Assembly: GCA_963733195.1 (NCBI GenBank)
Contig: CAVTCR010000059.1
Coordinates: 196,848-260,847 of the forward strand
Direction of reading: 5' to 3'
DNA: 64,000 bases
Source of the DNA: an uncultured delta proteobacterium
Lineage (GTDB): Bacteria > Desulfobacterota > Binatia > Bin18
This document shows, in pieces, positions 1 to 64,000 of this stretch (the first letter of the stretch is position 1; every line of letters starts with the position of its first letter). Below the pieces are notes generated by a model. That model searched no databases. It saw only the letters and a program-made list of their open reading frames with translations, and was not told the origin of the DNA. Both the position numbers and the translations under genes were made by a program.

Positions 1-420
1 GCTTGTTGCCTCTGGATCAGGACGGAGGACCAACGTTGCGACTGATTTCGTTTTTCGGTGCGCAGTCGCAAGTGCATTGAGGTCAAGGTCGAGAATCGTG
101 TCGCAATTGAGCACGAGAAAAGTTTCGTCGTCGAGGAATGGCTGGGCTTTCTTGATTCCGCCACCGGATTCGAGGATCGGATCTTCCGGCGAGTACGTAA
201 TACGCAGCCCGTATGCACTTCCATCCCCAAGCGCTTCGCGAATCGTATTGCCGAGATGATGCAGGTTAATGACAACGTTCTCGATGCCGTACGCTTTGAG
301 TAACAACAAGTTGTACTCAATCAACGGACGACCAGCGACCGAGACCAACGCTTTCGGAACGGTATTCGTGAGTGGACGTAACCGGGTACCAAACCCAGCT
401 GCAAGAATCATCGCACGCAT
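1..420 (-). CDS. murU: Nucleotidyltransferase, MurU-like (N-acetylmuramate alpha-1-phosphate uridylyltransferase); 3' end runs off the window
   Basis: Manual translation from ATG 420: MRAMILAAGFGTRLRPLTNTVPKAL... (NTP-transferase GxGTRL...PK motif). Open to position 1. Lies directly downstream of the amgK-like kinase. Confidence 0.8.
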   Translation of the reverse strand, partial: MRAMILAAGFGTRLRPLTNTVPKALVSVAGRPLIEYNLLLLKAYGIENVVINLHHLGNTIREALGDGSAYGLRITYSPEDPILESGGGIKKAQPFLDDETFLVLNCDTILDLDLNALATAHRKTKSVATLVLRPDPEATS

Positions 421-424
421 CGGC

Positions 425-1495
425 TTACTCGGGGAAGTGCGAGGCAATAATTTCTTGCAGTCGTCGGTACTGTGGCAAACGCGCAACGACACGACGAACC
501 GTTGCCAGTGTCGGCGGAATGTATCGACTGTAGCCCAGTCTTCTTTTTTTCGAGCTCTAAGATAATAGAATCGTCCCACTACTTTACTCGCCTTCTGTAA
601 TAAGACACAGGTTGTACTCTTCCCACATTTGCTCTTGTGCGATCGATGATCCGCCACTGTCATGCCAGGCGATGTGATAGTAATTGACGAGTGTTTGCTC
701 GAGTGCTGGGGAAATCACCGTTGGAGTATCACGGTCGTTGAGCAACGTTTCCAGATCATACGTTGCTGGAGCAAGCAGAGCATCCTGGAAATCAATGACA
801 CGAATCTCGTCGTTTTGTACGAACAAGTTCCAACTGTGATAATCGCGATGATTGAGAAACCGTGGGGCTTGATCGAGACGCGTGGAAATCTCGTCAAACA
901 TGGCTGCGCAATTCTTTTCCTTCGGCAGCGGACAGCGGTTTCCCTTCCCGTTTTTCGAGACCCCACTCAATGAAATGCTCAAACTCCCACATGAACAGCC
1001 GGTGATCAAACGCTTGCTGAAAGGCGATGCACGACTCGTCTCCACGACGAGTACCTTCGACTTGCAGGCGCACGAGCTGATCGATCGCTTTCTTATACAA
1101 GTCGTCAATCTGTGAGGCTGGAAGTCCTTGCGCGGCTTCGCGGAGGGGAACATCGCCGATATCTTCCAAGAGTAGGAAGCCATCTTTACTGCCATCGTAG
1201 TATGTTTCTGGAACGGTTACTCCGAGTGTTCTGAGGAAGCGATAGACATTGAGATACGGCAGTTCTTTCAATGGTTCCTTGAACACGGCAAGTTCATCGG
1301 AAGAGAGTGGCAACGCGCTGCCTGCCAACATCATGACGACAATTGTTGCTGGACCACTACCGGTGAGATGAAGGCGAGCATAACTGCGGCTAGAGGCGTC
1401 ACCGGTCAGCGGAACGACCTTGCAATGACTGTTATCTGTTGCCCCCACGTTTTTGCCACTGCCGCGTCGATAGCATGGCGAAGTTTTGCTTCCAT
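425..1495 (-). CDS. amgK: Aminoglycoside-phosphotransferase-fold kinase, AmgK-like (anomeric MurNAc/GlcNAc kinase); frameshifted
   Basis: GDASSRSYARL, LLLEDIGD, HRDYHSWNL and IDFQDAL motifs are spread over ORFs 894..1448 and 584..1195. Reconstructed start 1495 (MEAKLRHA) and stop 425, 4 nt before murU. Confidence 0.75.
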
Positions 1496-2375: not shown

Positions 2376-2424
2376 CGTCTTCCCTCCTCCTTTTTTTCTG
2401 TTGCCAATTCTTATGACGCCAAAG

Positions 2425-2450
2425 AGGGGCATATTGCAATCCGCCCCTAC
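2425..2450 (-). repeat. GTAG-type REP-like palindrome
   Basis: Minus strand reads GTAGGGGCGGATTGCAATATGCCCCT: GTAG tetramer plus GC hairpin. Similar units at 15240, 15276, 19066 and 60633. Confidence 0.55.
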
Positions 2451-2485
2451 CGCTGGCTAAGGTAGGGCCGCAACGAGGGAGCACT

Positions 2486-3670
2486 ATGGATTTTAACTTT
2501 TCCCCTGAAGAAGAAGCCTTTCGCCAAGAGGTACGTACCTGGCTGCAGGGAAACCTCCCAAAGGACTTCGATCCTGAAAAAATCGATGCGATCGACCTTG
2601 AAACCCGTTTCGATTTTCAACGAGCGTGGCAGAGAAAAGCGCATGAAGGCGGTTGGGTTGGGATTCACTGGCCGAAGGAGTACGGTGGGCGCGGTGCGAG
2701 TCTGATGGAGATGTTCATTTTCAATCAGGAACTGGCGAAAGTGCGTGCACCTCGTTATGCGAATACCCTGGGCCTCATCATGTCGGGTCCGACGCTTATT
2801 CACTGGGGAACTGAGGAGCAAAAGAAACGCTACTTGCCGAAAATTCTCTCGGGTGAGGAAATCTGGTGCGAAGGGCTGTCGGAGCCGAACGCAGGGTCAG
2901 ACCTTGCATCAATGCAAACGCGTGCGGTTGAAGATGGCGATTTCTTTGTCATCAATGGACAAAAGGTATGGACCAGTTATGCGCACCGTGCCAACTACAT
3001 CCAACTTTTTGTGCGTACTGACCCTGACTCGCCGAAGCACCGTGGCATTAGTTGTCTAATTGTCGATATGAAAACGCCGGGCATCACGGTGCGACCGCTC
3101 GTTCAAATCACCGGGGATGCTGAATTCAACGAAGTATTCTTTGAAGATGTGCGGGTACCAAAAATCAACCTGCTTGGGCCAAAAGATGAAGGGTGGAAAG
3201 TCTTGGTAACGACGTTGATGCACGAGCGGGCGGGCATCGGTTCGGATTTGCCCGTACATCGACATCTAACGGAGCTGATCCGACTCTGTCAGATTTTTGA
3301 AATCAATGGGAAGCCGGCGAGCAAAGATCCAATGGTACGACAGAAATTGGCGCAATTCGCGGCAGAGAGCCAGGCGATTACCTACAATATGTTTCGCAGT
3401 TTCAGCAAACGTCTCAAGGGAAATCCGCCAGGACCGGAAGGGTCGATAAACAAACTGTTTGGCTCTGATCTCAATATGCGTATTGCGCAATTTGCCACCG
3501 AACTGCTTGGGCCGTATGCGCAAGTCGTGCAAGGGTCCTCGTATGCGGTCGATCATGGTCGCTGGCCACGTGCAGCATTGTGGTACCGTCTGCTCACGAT
3601 TGGGGGTGGCACTTCTGAGATTCAACGTGGGATTCTGGGAGATCGGATGTTGGGGTTACCGAAAGGGTAG
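2486..3670 (+). CDS. Acyl-CoA dehydrogenase (FadE-type)
   Basis: WCEGLSEPNAGSDLA, GQKVWTS, EFNEVFFEDV and TIGGGTSEIQR motifs; 394 aa. Confidence 0.95.
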   Translation: MDFNFSPEEEAFRQEVRTWLQGNLPKDFDPEKIDAIDLETRFDFQRAWQRKAHEGGWVGIHWPKEYGGRGASLMEMFIFNQELAKVRAPRYANTLGLIMSGPTLIHWGTEEQKKRYLPKILSGEEIWCEGLSEPNAGSDLASMQTRAVEDGDFFVINGQKVWTSYAHRANYIQLFVRTDPDSPKHRGISCLIVDMKTPGITVRPLVQITGDAEFNEVFFEDVRVPKINLLGPKDEGWKVLVTTLMHERAGIGSDLPVHRHLTELIRLCQIFEINGKPASKDPMVRQKLAQFAAESQAITYNMFRSFSKRLKGNPPGPEGSINKLFGSDLNMRIAQFATELLGPYAQVVQGSSYAVDHGRWPRAALWYRLLTIGGGTSEIQRGILGDRMLGLPKG

Positions 3671-3762
3671 GCAGTGATCAGTTGTCAGTTACCAGTTGCC
3701 AATGAGGAAGGGGACAATTCTTCTCTGCCCTACTGACAACTGACCACTGAGAACTGACAACT
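3671..3762. repeat. Heptamer tandem repeats in inverted arrangement (CAGTTGT/CAGTTAC ... ACTGACA/ACTGACC)
   Basis: Directly visible 7-nt periodic runs that form an imperfect intergenic hairpin. Confidence 0.6.
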
Positions 3763-3787
3763 TTCTAAGAAAAAAGGAGGAATGACA

Positions 3788-4685
3788 ATGGGCAAGCTTG
3801 ATGGCAAAGTTGCAGCGATTACTGGTTCAGGGCGTGGGATTGGGCGTGGGATTGCGCTTGTTGATGGCAAAAGAAGGCGCCAAAGTTGTGGTGAACGACC
3901 TTGGTGGTAGTGTAGCTGGTGAAGGGACAGACAAAGGTCCGGCTTCACAAGTTGTTGATGAAATCAAGAAAGGTGGTGGGCAAGCGGTCGCGAACACTGA
4001 TAACATCGCCACTGTCAAAGGCGGCGAGAGTCTCATTCAGACGGCAATCGACTCGTTCGGCAAAATCGACATCCTGGTGAACTGCGCCGGAATTCTTCGC
4101 GACCGCATGATTTTCAATATGAGTGAGGAAGAGTGGGATGCGGTGATCGCCGTCCATCTCAAAGGGCATTATTGCACCATTCGCCCAGCATCCGCTGCGA
4201 TGCGTCAACAGAAGAGTGGGCGTATTATTAATTTTTCGTCTGGTTCAGCACTTGGTGCACCTGGACAGCCCAACTACGCAGCGGCCAAAGCTGGGATTCT
4301 CGGACTTACCTATAGCTGCGCAAATTCTCTTGCGAAGTATGGAATCACCTGCAACGCGATTATGCCAGGGGCAGCGACGCGCATGACCGATACGATTCCT
4401 GCGAACTTTGCGCAACAGATGGGTCTGTCCACAAGTAGTGAGCAAGCTCAAGCGAGTCCCATGGACCCAAACAATGTGGCGCCAATTGTCGTCTATCTTG
4501 CCAGCGATAAGGCTGCGCACGTGAACGGGCAAGTATTTGGTGCAAGTGGTTATCGCATTGCGCTCTACACCCACATTGTCCCCGAGAAGGTGATTTACAG
4601 CCAAGGACCGTGGGATCTCGATCATTTGTTTAAGGTGTTTGACAGTACGCTGGGTTCTCACCTGCAACCGCCGAGGATGCTGTAG
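3788..4685 (+). CDS. SDR family oxidoreductase (3-hydroxyacyl-CoA dehydrogenase-like); frameshift near 3860
   Basis: AAGGAGG RBS, MGKLDGKVAAITGSGRGIGRG (TGxxxGIG) from ATG 3788, continuing into VVVNDLGG, NCAGILRD and YAAAK. Confidence 0.9.
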
Positions 4686-57911: not shown

Positions 57912-59150
57912 GTGCTCAGCCCATATCGTGTATTAGATCTCACAACTGAACGTGGTCTGCTGTGCGGGCAGATTTTGGGCGACCTTGGGGCTGATGTAAT
58001 CAAGATCGAACCTCCGGGAGGATCGTCCGCGCGCCGACTGCCGCCATTTTATAAAGACATCCCTGATCCCAACAGCTCACTCTATTGGTGGGCCTATAAC
58101 CGCAATAAACGCGGCATTACACTTAATGTGACTAAGAGTGAAGGCAGAGCGCTGTTACAACGCCTTGTGAAAGACGCTCACTTCCTCATTGAGTCCGATA
58201 ACCCAGGAACGATGGCGAAGTTCGGATTGCGCTATCAAGATTTAGCGGCGATCAATCCGGCGCTGATCTACGTATCGATTTCTGCCTTTGGGCAGGATGG
58301 GCCCAAGGCGAGTTACGAGGATAGTGATTTAGTCATTCTCGCGGCGGGTGGACCGCTGATACTGACTGGTGATGACGATCGTCCTCCAGTACGGATTAGT
58401 GTACCGCAGGCGTACCTCCATGCGTGTGTAGAAGGGGTGATGGGAGCGTTATTAGCTAACCATGAACGTCAACGTTCTGGTCGTGGCCAATATATTGACG
58501 TGTCAGCCCAGCAGGCGGTGACGCAGGCGACGCAGGCAATGATCTTGGCCGCGCCGTTAGGAGAAGCTGAGATTCAGCGCATGGGTGGTGGGGTGAAGAT
58601 TGGTCCGATGAAGATTCGTCTCATCTGGCCAGCAAAAGACGGGCATGTGGCGATCACTTTTTTGTTCGGGACTGCATTTGCGCATTTTACAAAACGGTTG
58701 ATGGATTGGATCTATGAGGAAGGGCTCTGCGACGAAGCAACTCGTAATTCCGATTGGGTCGGATTTGGTGGAGTCCTTTTCAGTGGTCAAGGATTCGAAG
58801 AATACGAACGCCTGAAGCTCATTGTTGAAGAGTTCACCAAAACGAAAACTAAAGCTGAACTCCTTCAGGGCGCGCTCGACCGTGGCCTTGTCATGGCACC
58901 AATTACTCGGATCGACGAGGTCGTGAGCAGTCCGCAACTCGCTTCGCGTCAGTATTGGACTGAATTGCACCATCCTGAACTTGGTCAATCCTTCCGTTAT
59001 CCCGGACCGTTTGTGAAGTTTAGTGAGACGCCGATTACCTACCGCCGTCGGCCACCGTTGATTGGGGAGCATAATCGAGAAGTTTATATTGATGAATTAG
59101 GGGTGACCGAGAAGGAGTTGGCTGAATTGCAGAGTAAGGGTGTGGTTTGA
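57912..59150 (+). CDS. Family III CoA-transferase, subunit lacking the catalytic Asp
   Basis: DLGADVIKIEPP and NRNKRG motifs; PQAYLHA at the Asp position. Confidence 0.9.
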   Translation: MLSPYRVLDLTTERGLLCGQILGDLGADVIKIEPPGGSSARRLPPFYKDIPDPNSSLYWWAYNRNKRGITLNVTKSEGRALLQRLVKDAHFLIESDNPGTMAKFGLRYQDLAAINPALIYVSISAFGQDGPKASYEDSDLVILAAGGPLILTGDDDRPPVRISVPQAYLHACVEGVMGALLANHERQRSGRGQYIDVSAQQAVTQATQAMILAAPLGEAEIQRMGGGVKIGPMKIRLIWPAKDGHVAITFLFGTAFAHFTKRLMDWIYEEGLCDEATRNSDWVGFGGVLFSGQGFEEYERLKLIVEEFTKTKTKAELLQGALDRGLVMAPITRIDEVVSSPQLASRQYWTELHHPELGQSFRYPGPFVKFSETPITYRRRPPLIGEHNREVYIDELGVTEKELAELQSKGVV

Positions 59151-59349: not shown

Positions 59350-60567
59350 ATGACGAACAATCTGCCATTGGAAGGTGTGAAGATTCTCGATCTCATGTGG
59401 GTAATGGCTGGCCCTGCCGGAACACGTGTCCTGGCCGATTATGGCGCAACCATCATCCGCGTCGAATCGGCGCAGAAGATCGATACCGCCCGGATGCTGC
59501 AACCATTCCATGGGCGCAAACCTGGCCCGGATAGCTCGGCCTTGTTTCAGAATCTCAATGCTGGGAAGCTTGGCCTCGCGTTGGATTTGAACAATGAAAC
59601 AGCCCGTGAGGTTGTTCGTGACCTTGTTCGTTGGGCTGATGTGGTCACCGAGTCTTTCTCTCCCAAGGCGATGAAGGGGTGGGGATTGGATTACGAATCG
59701 CTGAAGAAGATTAAGCCAGACATCATCATGATCAGCTCATGCTTGATGGGTCAAACTGGACCAATGGCGAAGTTCGCTGGCTTTGGTAATCTCGCTGCCG
59801 CACTCACAGGCTTCTTCAATCTCACCGGCTGGCCGGATCGTATACCCGCCGGGCCGTTTAGTGCATATACGGATTACGTTGCTCCACGCTTTACTGCAAT
59901 TGCGATTCTCGCGGCATTAGACCATCGTCAGCGTACTGGGCAAGGGCAGTATATCGACCAATCGCAAGCCGAAGCGACGCTGCATTTTCTTAGCCCTGCC
60001 GTGCTCGATTATACGGCGAATGGTCGGGTGCAAGAGGCAATGGGTAATCGTGATCTCTATTTTGCCCCACATGGGGTGTACCCAGCAATCGGCACAGACC
60101 GTTGGGTGACGATTACCGTCAAAACCGAAGAACAATGGCAAACTCTCTGTGAGGTCATGCAACGAGCAGATCTCGTACGCGATACACGCTTTACCACGCG
60201 TGAAGCGCGACTCACTCATCAAGACGAACTCGACGCGCTCATTAGCGAGTGGACGAAACAACACGACCCCTACCGTGTCGAAGCAATGTTACAAGCGCGT
60301 GGCGTTTCGGCAGGTGCGGTGAGCACGATGCATGAAGCGTATAAAGATCCGCAACTGGCTCATCGTAACCACTTTGTTCAACTCGACCATCCGACGTACG
60401 GAACAACGACTGTCGAAGGCTCACGTATCCGTCTGTCACGTACTCCGGCGCAGGTACAACGCTGTGCGCCGACGATCGGACGTGACAATCAGCAGGTGCT
60501 AGAGCAAATCCTTGGCTACAGCGAGGAGAAGATCACTGAGTTGGTAGCGGCAGGGGCGTTGGAGTAG
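59350..60567 (+). CDS. Family III CoA-transferase, catalytic subunit
   Basis: WVMAGP, YGATIIRVES, NAGK and AYTDYVAP motifs. Confidence 0.92.
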   Translation: MTNNLPLEGVKILDLMWVMAGPAGTRVLADYGATIIRVESAQKIDTARMLQPFHGRKPGPDSSALFQNLNAGKLGLALDLNNETAREVVRDLVRWADVVTESFSPKAMKGWGLDYESLKKIKPDIIMISSCLMGQTGPMAKFAGFGNLAAALTGFFNLTGWPDRIPAGPFSAYTDYVAPRFTAIAILAALDHRQRTGQGQYIDQSQAEATLHFLSPAVLDYTANGRVQEAMGNRDLYFAPHGVYPAIGTDRWVTITVKTEEQWQTLCEVMQRADLVRDTRFTTREARLTHQDELDALISEWTKQHDPYRVEAMLQARGVSAGAVSTMHEAYKDPQLAHRNHFVQLDHPTYGTTTVEGSRIRLSRTPAQVQRCAPTIGRDNQQVLEQILGYSEEKITELVAAGALE

Positions 60568-61078
60568 AGCAAAAGAGGCAAGGGCGAAAAGGGGAAATGG
60601 CAAAAAGGCCTGCTCACTCTGTTCGCTCTGATGTAGGGCGGGCAGAGCGCCATATGCGCCAAGATATCGTTTTCCGTGAGTGAGAGACAAACAGTTAGGC
60701 AGCCGCACGCAAGGGAGCAAGGGGGGTAGACTGGAGCCACGTCGCGACTGCTGGCGGCAGCACTTGGAGCTTGCGGGGCCGGGGGCGTTCGGCCAGCGCG
60801 CGCAAGACGGCCTGCCAATCCCACGCCTGCCAGCGAACTGTATCCAAGACGGTGTCTTGGATTTCCTTGGCGAGCAGTTTCCAGATCCGCCACCACGTCG
60901 CCACCCGGGTCGTGAGCATCTGGGGCCACTCATTGCCGAGCCGGGCGACCGCACGGCGCTCGACCAACACAGCAAAGAGGAGTTTGCCGGTCCGATACCC
61001 CATCGCCAGCGGGGCGCCGCGCTTGGCCCGTACGTGGGCGGCGGCAAGCAAGCTCTTGTAGCGTTTCAGCACGAGTTC

Positions 61079-62982
61079 GATGTGGCAGTCGCAACCCATA
61101 AAACGATTGACCTGGTAGTCCAAACACAGGTGAAGAAGTTGCAGCGGAATACGCGAGGATAATCCGGTTTCGCCGTTCTTGGGCTCTTCCAGCAAAATAA
61201 TGCGATGGAGGAGCTCGATGAAACAGCTGCACATTCGGCACCAAACCTCGGTCGCGGATCCGCTTCGGCAGGAACGGCTGCGGCGCGCACTCGCGATCGT
61301 AATGGAGTATCAGGAGGATCCTCATGCAAGTGGCACTCTACGCCCGAGTCTCAACCCCCAATCAACAACAGGAAGGAACGATTGCCAGTCAGATTCACTC
61401 GCTCCATCTGTACATTCGCCAACAGGGATGGAGTCTGTTACCCACGCATGAGTATATAGATGAAGGGGTCAGTGGAGCGCGGTTGGATCGCCCGGCCTTG
61501 GATCGCCTTCGCGACTGTGCCCAACGCGGAGAGTTTGATGCAGTGGTGGTGTTATCGCCGGATCGCTTAGCCCGCAACTATGCCCATCAGTGGTTACTGA
61601 TCGAAGAGTTTGAGAAACTCCAAGTGCAGTGGATTTTTTTGCAGAATCCCTTTGGCGATACGCCGCAAGGAAAATTGTTGACGCAAATGCAAGGGATGAT
61701 GGCGGAATACGAACGCGCGCAGATTCATGAACGTACACGACGGGGACGACTGGAGAAAGCACGCCGTGGGGAGTTCATCCCGTGGGCGTTTAGTTGTTAT
61801 GGGTATCGGTATTTACCCAAGCGTCATGGGTGCGCTCCGCAAGTCACGATTAAGCTGGAAGAAGCAGAAGTCGTCCGACAGCTCTATCGGGATCTGGTGG
61901 AGGAACAATTGAGCTGTCGGCAACTGACCAAACGGCTCAATGAGGCCCGGACTCCTACCCCGTCAGGAAAAAACCCGGTGTGGCATCCCGCAACGGTGAG
62001 AAACATTCTCACCAACCGCGTCTATACGGGCCAGGCCCGCTACAATTATCGGCAACCCGTGTTGCCGAAATATCGCAAGACCGCAGAGACGCAACTCTCC
62101 TATCTCAAAACTGGCCGCAGCTACCGTCCTCCCCAGGAGTGGGTGTGGAGTGAGGCACCGGCCATTATTCCTGTGGAGCTGTTCGAGAAAGCCCAACTGC
62201 AATTGCATCGTAATGCGGAAGTCGCTCGTAAGATGTATCAACCGTCTTCCCGGCGCTACTTGTTGCGCACGTTGGTCAAATGTGGGGAGTGTGGGTTAGG
62301 GATGGCGGCGGCTCATCAACGGAGTGTCTGTAAGAAGTATGACTATCTCTATTATGAGTGTAAGGGACACGCGCCGCTGACCTGCGGACGTGAGACCAAA
62401 TGTCGCTCCCGCCGCGTACGCGCGGATCGTTTGGATGCGATCGTATGGAGATCACTCTGTGAGTTACTTACAACGCCAACGCTTCTGCCGCAGCTCCACC
62501 AGAGCTGGGCACAGACCAAACACCACGATCTGACCACGCTCACCGCCCAACACGAACAACTCCTGCAGCGCAAGCGCCGCGTCGAGCGGCAAAGTGAACG
62601 CTTGCTGGATGCGTATCAAACAGAAACCATCACGCTTAGTGAATTGCAACTCCGCCGCCAGAAACTGACCACCGAACTCCAACACCTGGATCGCGAACTC
62701 CAACAGCTTACTCACACGCAGCAACAAACCCTCCATTGGCACGACGTCATCACCCACGTCGACCACTTTCGTCACCTCTTAGGCGAGAACCTCGATCGCC
62801 TCGCCTTTGCCGATCGGCAAATCGTTGCCCAATGTCTGATCAAAAAAATCGTCGTTACGGGCGAACAAGTCGATATCTCTTATATCCTCCCTTTTGACCA
62901 AGCCCCTCAGGTATATAATAGTAGCGATCAACAACCTGAGGGGACGCCAGGCTATTTTTACCGGTTGCGACTGGCAGACCTC
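61079..62982 (+). mobile_element. Minimal large-serine-recombinase integrative element (1904 bp)
   Basis: 25-bp inverted arms at 61079-61103 and 62956-62980, a TC core at both junctions, and removal restores the IS4 reading frame. Confidence 0.9.
61218..61451 (+). CDS. Small ORF overlapping the recombinase start
   Basis: GGAGGAG RBS, then MKQLHIRHQTSVADPLRQERLRRALAIVMEY (77 aa); the only other ORF in the element. Confidence 0.55.
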   Translation: MKQLHIRHQTSVADPLRQERLRRALAIVMEYQEDPHASGTLRPSLNPQSTTGRNDCQSDSLAPSVHSPTGMESVTHA

Positions 62983-63264
62983 CACTTGCCATCGGATCCG
63001 ATACAACTCCAGAATGGTGGCGGCACTGAGCTCAGTCGGGGGCACGGTGGTCAACACCAACCCCCACTCGCTCAAGAAAAGCCTTTGTGCCCGCAGCCTG
63101 CGTCCGCGGCGGCTGGCTTGACGTTTGGCTCGGCGCCGGGTCCGATTGCACTGCTGCTCGTTCAGATGCAGCGCCTGAATCCACACCGGCAGCGCCTGCC
63201 CCTTCTTCTCCTCTCGCACCTGCAGAGCAAAGCTCACGCGCGACTGTTTCCCTGCGACCTGTAA
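61324..63264 (+). CDS. Large serine recombinase (resolvase + recombinase + zinc-ribbon/coiled-coil)
   Basis: YARVST catalytic Ser, DEGVSGA..RPAL, DRLAR, CGECG...YYEC...C and a coiled coil. The last 93 aa derive from the antisense strand of IS4. Confidence 0.95.
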   Translation: MQVALYARVSTPNQQQEGTIASQIHSLHLYIRQQGWSLLPTHEYIDEGVSGARLDRPALDRLRDCAQRGEFDAVVVLSPDRLARNYAHQWLLIEEFEKLQVQWIFLQNPFGDTPQGKLLTQMQGMMAEYERAQIHERTRRGRLEKARRGEFIPWAFSCYGYRYLPKRHGCAPQVTIKLEEAEVVRQLYRDLVEEQLSCRQLTKRLNEARTPTPSGKNPVWHPATVRNILTNRVYTGQARYNYRQPVLPKYRKTAETQLSYLKTGRSYRPPQEWVWSEAPAIIPVELFEKAQLQLHRNAEVARKMYQPSSRRYLLRTLVKCGECGLGMAAAHQRSVCKKYDYLYYECKGHAPLTCGRETKCRSRRVRADRLDAIVWRSLCELLTTPTLLPQLHQSWAQTKHHDLTTLTAQHEQLLQRKRRVERQSERLLDAYQTETITLSELQLRRQKLTTELQHLDRELQQLTHTQQQTLHWHDVITHVDHFRHLLGENLDRLAFADRQIVAQCLIKKIVVTGEQVDISYILPFDQAPQVYNSSDQQPEGTPGYFYRLRLADLHLPSDPIQLQNGGGTELSRGHGGQHQPPLAQEKPLCPQPASAAAGLTFGSAPGPIALLLVQMQRLNPHRQRLPLLLLSHLQSKAHARLFPCDL

Positions 63265-64000
63265 AGCCGCGACCAGATCAAACGACTCCCCCGTCCCGGT
63301 CCACAGGCGCAAGTATGGGGAGTCATCCGTACGACCACGTGCGCCCCGCTGGCACGCGTGGCGAGCAGGGCCGGGGCTTTGGCAAAATTGCGATCCCCTC
63401 ACACCCCCATGCCGGGGCCCCACGTAAAGCGCGTCAAACTCTCACCCGTATGCACGTCACTCACGTGGAGTTCGTGTACCCGCTGGGCTACCGGATCGTC
63501 CGCCACGTGCCAGCGCTAATCCGTGCCCTGCGCGCCGGGCCCACTGATCTGCGAGCCGTCACAAATCACGAGCTGCCACGGCGCGTCCGTCCGTTCCGGC
63601 AGGGCCCGCACGGGCAACAACTTGCCCAGCAGCCGCTCCAGCCACGGCGGACAGGCCGCCAACCGCTGCCGCACCGCTTCATCGGTCAGCGGTTTCCCAC
63701 TGCCCGTACACACGCCGGCAATCTCCCGCAGGGATAAGTCCCCGAGGCTGTAGAGGAAGACCAGATACAAGAGGTCGTCGGGCGACTCCAGGACTCGCGC
63801 CCGCGTGAAGGCCTGACCTTCGCGCGCCAGCTGCGCGCTCTCGGGGGGTAACTCTTGTCGGAGGGCTTCATACTTGCTAGCAACATCGTGAAGTGGCATC
63901 CGGTTCTCCTTTCGAGTGGGGTGCTCGGTGAGCGCCGTTTTGCCACTTCTTTCACTATGTTACACCTACCTTGGCGCATATGGGGCTCTGCCCACCCTTT

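Follow-up and report, generated by a model that had tools for sequence, protein, structure and literature searches.

Serine-recombinase elements of about 1.9 kb inserted at the catalytic codons of transposases

The window analysed here, a stretch of 64,000 nucleotides from an uncultured delta proteobacterium, carries at positions 61079–62982 a 1904-bp element that encodes a large serine recombinase (LSR) and splits the transposase gene of an IS4-type insertion sequence (IS) at the codon for its catalytic glutamate. We put at roughly 85% the probability that this is one copy of a widespread family of approximately 1.9-kb LSR elements that target the catalytic codons of transposases, and that the element is accordingly a parasite of transposons. 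Such parasitism had been suggested by an earlier note on the window; the relatives of the element support it and show it to be wider than proposed, with transposases of the IS4, IS701, IS1380, and IS6 families all among the targets.

The element and the two parts of the gene that it interrupts are arranged as follows (a slash marks each junction; YREK denotes the transposase motif Y-x2-R-x3-E-x6-K, and attP the putative attachment site of the element).

60695–61078, minus strand: C-terminal fragment of the IS4 transposase, starting at the Glu codon (61076–61078) and holding the Lys of YREK (ELVLKRYKSLL...)
61077–61078: left crossover dinucleotide, TC (GA on the transposase strand), matching 62981–62982
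61078/61079, plus strand: left junction, ...GAGTTC/GATGTGG..., also given as ...GAGTTC/GATGTGGCAGTCGCAACCCATAAAA...
61079–61103: left arm, 25 nt, half of attP, found with 0–5 mismatches in 74 of 85 loci
61324–62982, plus strand: LSR, 553 codons inside the element, with no stop within it
62956–62980: right arm, 25 nt, the other half of attP, inside the recombinase coding sequence
62981–62982: right crossover dinucleotide, TC, read at the junction
62982/62983, plus strand: right junction, ...GCAGACCTC/CACTTGCC..., also given as ...TTTTACCGGTTGCGACTGGCAGACCTC/CACTTGCC...
62983–63899, minus strand: N-terminal portion of the IS4 transposase, which reads ...LYRIRWQV up to the junction

Both junctions can be read directly, and the dinucleotide TC is the only sequence common to them. 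This agrees with the proposal that the crossover falls on GA (TC on the plus strand), the first two bases of the Glu codon. The same dinucleotide stands at both junctions in every locus for which both flanks are available, being TC at both ends in the 54 contexts that have the orientation of the window copy. Deletion of 61079–62982 in a script joins the minus-strand ...ILELYRIRWQV, the Glu codon, and LVLKRYKSLL in one frame and restores Y-x2-R-x3-E-x6-K, which confirms that the element sits in the catalytic Glu codon of an IS4 transposase. A Glu codon is retained at the upstream junction, formed by GA and a G of the element; the Glu is not deleted, and the insertion parts it from the YREK Lys and the C-terminal 127 residues. 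The two 25-nt arms form an imperfect inverted repeat with 20 of 25 positions matched and 5 substitutions, exactly the symmetry that had been claimed for attP; a second inverted-repeat computation gave 21 nt at 86%.

Relatives place this arrangement in a family. Among 60 related genomes searched, 4 held a recombinase match at E ≤ 1e-30, three of them at 84%–95% identity; a whole genome collection, searched with one genome per species, gave 7 loci; and metagenome contigs gave 224 relatives, of which the best 80 (68%–91% identity) were kept. The 85 loci examined encode recombinases 68%–95% identical to that of the window, and the window arms were sought in them by fuzzy matching. Both arms are present in 72 of the 85, with element sizes of 1901–1919 bp, and the window arms match relatives' arms with 0 mismatches. 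At one locus (L004), DNA similarity to the window begins and ends at the element ends; the element is thus a discrete unit that recurs in different surroundings. The family has also moved recently, since identical or nearly identical elements lie in unrelated transposases: L021 and L023 carry elements with 100% identity across all 1904 bp in different genes (...TYHERWQV/ and ...AYRYRWTV/), and the pairs L018/L019 (99.7%) and L060/L061 (98.5%) are each likewise divided between different transposases. The reverse case occurs as well, with elements just 76%–88% identical sharing the same site of the same IS type.

To avoid counting one insertion repeatedly, flanks differing by less than 15% were grouped, giving 66 contexts from the 85 loci, 65 of them with flank sequence. 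These fall into the following classes.

YREK-type, with Y (−7), R (−4), E (0), and K (+7) fitting at every testable position: 41 contexts, 27 of them at all four
YREK-type, one position missed: 11 contexts, mostly decayed copies or K-to-R
IS6 transposases at the first catalytic Asp, W-x-x/D-E-[VT]-[FY]: 6 contexts
Core TG, ISL3-type transposase at ...CERLPGL/VAPYAHKT..., co-oriented: 1 context (L070/L081)
Core AG, TnpB gene: 1 context (L068)
Unexplained: 5 contexts (L028, L073, L082, L084, L096)

The collection of homologue flanks, a check that had been set beforehand, therefore places 52 of the 65 contexts at the same YREK Glu codon of IS4, IS701, and IS1380 transposases and a further 6 at the W-x-x-D of IS6 transposases (a count that takes in L095, whose shortened flank escaped the class-counting pattern). 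With 58 of 65 independent contexts at the same catalytic codons, chance is excluded.

Profile matches place the junctions with the same precision. Of 38 upstream flanks scanned against Pfam, 19 gave any match, and those to DDE_Tnp_1 end at position 163 of 200 in 11 of 11 cases. Matches to NCBIfam IS4_1 end at 290 of 332 in 11 of 11 and those to IS4_3 at 281 in 2 of 2. For IS701_2, upstream matches end at 249 and the downstream flank starts at 250; for IS701_3, the corresponding positions are 318–319 and 320. IS6 profile matches start at position 73 of 202 in 4 of 4 cases and DDE_Tnp_IS240 matches at column 7 in 6 of 6, and one target is identified by NCBIfam as IS1380. The idea that the element uses the most conserved motif of its target as attB, the attachment site in the target, is thereby upheld, as junctions fall on one profile column per transposase family. 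Target genes are open for at least 300 codons up to the junction in 12 contexts, 11 of them transposases and the last the TnpB gene of L068, so many targets are otherwise intact genes. Beside the ISL3 transposase that carries the TG-core element, L081 also holds an intact IS6-type transposase gene (1–576, minus strand, ...SWRVDETYIKVKGQWRYLY...), a vacant site such as the IS6-targeting clade occupies.

An attB logo was built from the 38 YREK-type contexts with both flanks.

−21/−20: TA, 35 and 31 of 38, Tyr codon
−12/−11: CG, 32 and 35 of 38, Arg codon
−9 to −7: TGG, 32, 27, and 30 of 38, Trp codon
−2: T, 37 of 38, Val/Ile codon
0/+1, the core: GA, 38 and 38 of 38, Glu codon
+21/+22: AA, 36 and 36 of 38, Lys codon

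Information in the logo is confined to these positions, the first two positions of the motif codons, and they extend over about 44 bp, the length to be expected for an attB. At −9 to −5 the right arm has TGGCA and the left arm TGCCA, where attB has TGG followed by C (20 of 38) and A (16 of 38), a likeness that hints at direct reading of the Trp codon by the enzyme. IS6 and YREK sites have TGG-N4-T-N-GA in common and no more; this word explains how a lineage could pass between the two motifs.

Orientation follows the core. The recombinase is antisense to the transposase in 54 contexts and co-oriented with it in 8, with 4 contexts having another core or none. On the recombinase strand, co-oriented elements show GA in place of TC, and a quick tree of the recombinases groups them together. 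On the same tree, six IS6-targeting elements cluster, L053 stands by itself beside a YREK-targeting neighbour, and the changed-core elements L068 and L070 are sisters. The pattern fits the rule that the 2-bp core of a serine recombinase fixes polarity and must match between sites.

On every feature testable here, the enzyme reads as a member of the LSR family. Its Pfam domains comprise Resolvase (PF00239, E 5.7e-37, residues 3–150), the Recombinase domain, or DNA-binding domain 1 (DBD1) (PF07508, E 6.4e-20, residues 179–296), and the zinc ribbon Zn_ribbon_recom, or DBD2 (PF13408, E 1.9e-8, residues 313–378). Sequence matches to solved large serine recombinases include TP901-1 integrase, SPbeta YokA/SprA, and A118 integrase, the C-terminal chains of which match residues 309–523. 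Heptad-like Q/L/R/E repeats are abundant, by eye only, over residues of approximately 400–470. The nucleophile, Ser10, is invariant in 54 aligned recombinase sequences, and the window enzyme is full length with every residue that is invariant in that alignment. No Pfam match to DUF4368 was found in it at E ≤ 0.01. The IS607 model NF033518 scores 38.6 bits against a cut-off of 110, over the catalytic domain only, and the XisF equivalog NF041201 scores 112.9 against 375, XisF being among the nearest named NCBIfam families. The enzyme thus falls outside the TndX/TnpX clade, the IS607 family, and the XisF equivalog.

In all 72 copies, the recombinase frame stays open through the final base of the element; at least 540 codons of it are open in 62. 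The stop must consequently be supplied by the flank or, in a circle, by its left end. The window frame continues as far as 63264, reading 93 codons antisense to the transposase gene (62983–63264); the integrated copy would accordingly encode a protein ending in a foreign tail that differs between insertions. In circular form, the frame would extend by 25–27 or 85–86 codons. A functional long C-terminal tail specific to the circle was considered and dropped, because the frame in the leader lacks purifying selection (pN/pS, the ratio of non-synonymous to synonymous change, is 1.72) and contains stops; the first 25 or so tail codons overlap the arm, where selection on the tail cannot be judged. 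At L017 (approximately 2395–4159), a frame change fuses a small upstream open reading frame (ORF) to the recombinase in a single frame of 588 codons.

This small ORF is the second conserved gene of the family, and the 3′ end of the recombinase gene contains a conserved hairpin.

61218–61451, plus strand: conserved small ORF, 77 codons, overlapping the recombinase start out of frame
62904–62943, plus strand: conserved inverted repeat or hairpin within the 3′-terminal part of the recombinase ORF, with stems of 9–10 bp and a variable 21-nt loop

The small ORF lies in a 245-nt leader, is intact in the window, and is preceded by the ribosome-binding site GGAGGAG at 61207–61213. By an ATGAAA pattern, it is present in 59 of 63 distinct elements, with 77 amino acids in 37 of those. 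Its frame is under coding constraint, with a pN/pS of 0.39 and no stop in 54 sequences, against 1.2–1.7 with stops for the other frames; the recombinase control stands at 0.16. The first 33 residues are conserved. No Pfam match at E ≤ 5 was obtained for four members, and atlas matches (0.83–0.84) were to unnamed clusters, under the meaningful level. A predicted complex of the recombinase with the small-ORF product scored 0.69, 0.70, and 0.69, compared with 0.00 for the best of three controls; of 80 solved complexes, 58 attain the mark used for this score, as do 2 of 110 mismatched pairs. The partner is modelled at a predicted local distance difference test (pLDDT) value of 51–52, with a contact agreement between runs of at least 60%. 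Contacts are predicted from small-ORF residues 2–33 to recombinase residues 365–398 and 475–526, which by sequence position would correspond to the junction of the zinc domain and the coiled coil. Excerpts of a published account describe directionality factors as binding that junction of LSRs (PMC12286644). The small ORF is thus a candidate directionality or regulatory cofactor, a role that the complex model supports without proving it. The description of the element as cargo-free accordingly needs qualification: cargo is indeed lacking, but the enzyme set probably comprises two proteins, a small ORF being conserved beside the recombinase.

The letters of the hairpin stem are CCCCTCAGG and CCTGAGGGG. 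Each of the nine inner pairs is unchanged in 50–57 of 57 sequences, and the synonymous sites of the stem are invariant; the structure is not a canonical terminator. A promoter and terminator scan of 60900–63200 gave two promoter-like and two terminator-like sites, no more than in shuffled sequence.

The proposed mechanism is as follows. Each element would consist of the LSR, the small upstream ORF, two imperfect inverted arms, and nothing else. A circle produced by excision would carry an attP of about 52 bp, the two arms around the TC/GA core. The attB with which the LSR would recombine this attP would be the stretch coding for Y-x2-R-x3-E-x6-K of DDE transposases, with strand exchange at GA, the first two bases of the catalytic Glu codon. 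The non-palindromic core would set the orientation, so that a flipped-core clade would occupy the same codon the other way round, and elements with mutated cores (TG and AG) would occupy other mobile-element genes, namely the ISL3 transposase and TnpB. Because the attB positions are fixed by the protein motif, one enzyme lineage could enter IS4, IS701, and IS1380 transposases; because TGG-N4-T-N-GA recurs at the first catalytic Asp, IS6 transposases would be open to it too. Insertion would split the transposase, and the small ORF would most likely act as the excision (directionality) cofactor. As serine recombination is conservative, excision would restore the transposase exactly. Landing sites of this kind would presumably benefit the element.

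The host IS of the window is bounded by two terminal inverted repeats.

60635–60666: terminal inverted repeat at the transposase-stop end, a 32-nt arm 91% complementary to 63967–63998
63967–63998: the other terminal inverted repeat, 32 nt, with the contig end 2 nt further on

Without the insert, the IS is 1460 bp long. The interrupted gene encodes a DDE transposase of IS4 type (Pfam DDE_Tnp_1; NCBIfam IS4_1), and assignment of the IS to IS4 is borne out by this transposase, by YREK on removal of the element, and by the 32-nt inverted repeats. The NCBIfam IS4_1 match spans positions 227–290 and lies under the cut-off because the query is a fragment; the C-terminal transposase fragment alone gave no Pfam match. 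Just upstream of the IS lie two long, similar plus-strand ORFs (57912–59150 and 59350–60567) that look like ordinary host genes.

Several points weigh against the reading of the window element as a member of a mobile, transposase-targeting family. The host IS has decayed independently: alignment to the related L089 transposase (40% identity) locates two in-frame stops upstream of the insertion, the first at 63516–63518, and a frameshift between approximately 63183 and 63279, so that the gene is a pseudogene and the IS is dead from lesions other than the element. The earlier suggestion that the element inactivates its host IS therefore cannot be demonstrated at this locus. Element and host IS are each single-copy in the 6.9-Mb assembly; contrary to what had been supposed, the IS is thus not multicopy here, and no uninterrupted copy of it occurs in the assembly. 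The same genome has 19 matches to the IS4_1 profile. The 15 places examined comprise 10 uninterrupted YREK sites, 4 without the motif by the pattern used, and the window's own split gene. Intact sites include kinds that are occupied elsewhere (...ERWQVECYHKSLKQNV, ...ARFQIEFLFRDSKQFT, and ...RQQIEETFRLLKQEF), and their genes read straight through the junction position. The resident element has therefore not spread within its own genome, leaving at least 10 seemingly suitable sites empty; the window copy may be inactive, or integration may be rare. The contigs of four sequencing runs showed neither a circle junction nor an empty site nor a joint at the window locus, a result uninformative either way on excision; loose ends occur at 61076 and 62980, leading into other flanks. 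Among the sequencing runs searched, the share of sampled words present never exceeded 26%, and no RNA run contained them. Beyond the window, 5 of the 65 contexts are unexplained (one of them, L096, resembling a degenerate YREK site), the logo cannot separate bases read by the enzyme from bases fixed by the protein motif, the recombinase tree exists in a quick version only, and the small-ORF complex model has a partner pLDDT near 51 and was built on custom alignments with rows drawn from the same loci.

The window copy may, in view of its lone state and that of its IS, its host transposase with two extra stops and a frameshift, and the 10 YREK sites unused in the same genome, be a stranded relic: a member of a mobile family that entered an IS already dead or later decayed, no longer moves, and would count as a fossil and not as an active parasite. 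This is a serious possibility, if one to which we give distinctly less than even odds, and it must contend with a full-length recombinase that retains all the invariant residues, an intact small ORF, and arms that still match those of relatives perfectly. A different explanation would have the recombinase merely prefer the short word TGG-N4-T-N-GA and strike transposases because they are abundant, repeated, and tolerated, with no adaptation of the element to their catalytic motif. That word is indeed all that IS6 Asp sites share with YREK sites, and elements near-identical to canonical neighbours do lie at non-canonical sites (L028, 99.3% identical to L026; L082, 98.6% identical to L080). Chance occurrences of so short a word are expected in many genes, yet 58 of 65 contexts lie at two catalytic motifs, conserved positions run from −21 to +22, the full span of an attB, and the junction falls on one profile column in every transposase family. 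We regard this explanation as improbable. Least probable of all, to the point of being hard to credit, is a switch controlled by the host or the IS, as in heterocyst and sporulation genes, in which regulated excision turns the transposase on. A serine recombinase would leave the gene exactly restored on excision, XisF is near among named families, and excerpts of one survey mention two transposase genes with xis elements (PMC4874684). A single lineage that occupies many unrelated IS families and moves between them better fits a selfish element, however; the XisF score is far below its cut-off, and the window IS is dead.

The family of elements that target transposase catalytic codons has more distant relatives with similar habits. 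The genome of the window itself contains elsewhere (L009, G000:C1:68024–71478, at approximately 720–2715) a mini-element with a 41%-identical, frameshifted recombinase and its own 20-nt inverted ends, which splits a group II intron reverse transcriptase at ...TPQGGVL/GPLLLN.... A recombinase 53% identical to that of L009 (L110) adjoins a reverse-transcriptase fragment starting ...VLSPLLSNIVLDD. From a plasmid collection came 40 records, none reaching 42% identity; 11 of these were looked at. In Methylobacterium aquaticum pMaqPC1, a 34%-identical LSR lies in a Tn5-like IS4 transposase at the same codon (...DWYARRWKI/E/VFHHILKTG...), and on a Roseomonas mucosa plasmid the recombinase lies at ...LYHQRWHIE/. 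In plasmids of Bradyrhizobium elkanii and Mesorhizobium (L117 and L119), a group II intron reverse transcriptase is split near PQGG/SPLL by a recombinase accompanied by a CopG-like small gene. No target was recognised by a crude motif scan at 7 of the 11 plasmid loci (H1, H2, H3, H4, H7, H12, and H25), and no transposase or reverse-transcriptase flank was found in the ORFs scanned at L007, L013, L014, and L015 (32%–37% identity). As a habit, insertion into genes that belong to other mobile elements is thus older and wider than the 68%–95% family, but it is not universal in the clade. At L008 (G024:C107), minus-strand ORFs at 2–1396 and 1456–2499 place an uninterrupted IS4_1 transposase directly 3′ of a truncated 37%-identical recombinase with a TAG stop; here the IS may have inserted into a recombinase element.

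Taking the distant relatives into account, we lean towards a broader proposal, with less assurance than attaches to the family itself: that these elements form an undescribed class of minimal two-gene serine-recombinase hyperparasites that home to conserved motifs of mobile-element enzymes. The attB would be held constant by protein function, which would let one lineage invade many IS families and phyla, riding a disabled IS and leaving without a scar by means of its own directionality factor. Targets under this proposal may comprise the YREK Glu, the first Asp of IS6, the ISL3 and TnpB sites, and, in relatives of 33%–41% identity, PQGG..SPLL of group II intron reverse transcriptases.

The LSRs of phages and integrative elements (Bxb1, phiC31, A118/LI, and SPbeta SprA) share with the present system the three-domain enzyme, the 2-bp crossover, and an attP of about 50 bp with an imperfect dyad, and the small partner is predicted here at the same junction of zinc domain and coiled coil. 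Unlike those integrases, however, the window element measures just 1.9 kb with no phage or island attached, its attB is a sequence coding for a protein motif in many transposase families instead of one locus, and its recombinase ORF ends outside the element. The multi-targeting clade of TnpX (Tn4451) and TndX (Tn5397) likewise uses an LSR as transposase, excising as a circle and entering many sites. The crossover dinucleotide of Tn4451 and Tn5397 is GA. Those transposons differ in carrying cargo, in their relaxed AT-rich target motifs, and in DUF4368, which gave no match here. DUF4368 marks the TndX/TnpX clade and occurs in 63% of it, according to excerpts of Durrant and colleagues (2022; PMC10083194); the same excerpts describe site-specific and multi-targeting recombinases and name no transposase target.

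Nearest to a precedent, as far as the excerpts of Hilton and colleagues (2016; PMC4874684) extend, are the interrupted transposases of cyanobacteria. Recombinase-bearing interruption elements, down to about 1 kb in size, lie there inside coding genes, and 2 of 22 interrupted gene groups are transposases. XisF-type elements are, however, described in those excerpts as developmental excision elements of host genes, with no common codon or motif across IS families. In IS607, too, a serine recombinase moves a minimal insertion sequence, although IS607 TnpA is described in excerpts of two papers as a small serine recombinase with an N-terminal DNA-binding domain and minimal target specificity (PMC4058570, PMC6188088). 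By comparison, the window enzyme matches the IS607 model in its catalytic domain only, far below the cut-off. The res-site hunters Tn5053 and Tn402, inteins, and homing introns use a conserved motif or a mobile element as a safe and widespread landing site. The strategy is the same; the enzymes and chemistry are different. We know of no case in which a serine recombinase is aimed at the DDE motif itself, and a literature search, with most subscription journals and supplements outside its scope, found no description of serine-recombinase elements aimed at YREK or DDE codons. We take what is described here to be a serine-recombinase integrative element of a known enzyme family, reduced to the size of an IS and directed at catalytic codons in other mobile elements.

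Annotation at such loci currently reads 'recombinase family protein' beside two transposase or reverse-transcriptase fragments, and the finding matters for how they are annotated. It offers a natural integrase with an attachment site defined by a protein motif, for which dozens of naturally validated attB variants can be read off; these are useful both for understanding how LSRs read DNA and for compact integrase tools in genome engineering. For bacterial mobile DNA as a whole, the family would add to the catalogue a new kind of IS-sized element, moved by an LSR, and would reveal a level of parasitism directed at transposases through their catalytic codons.

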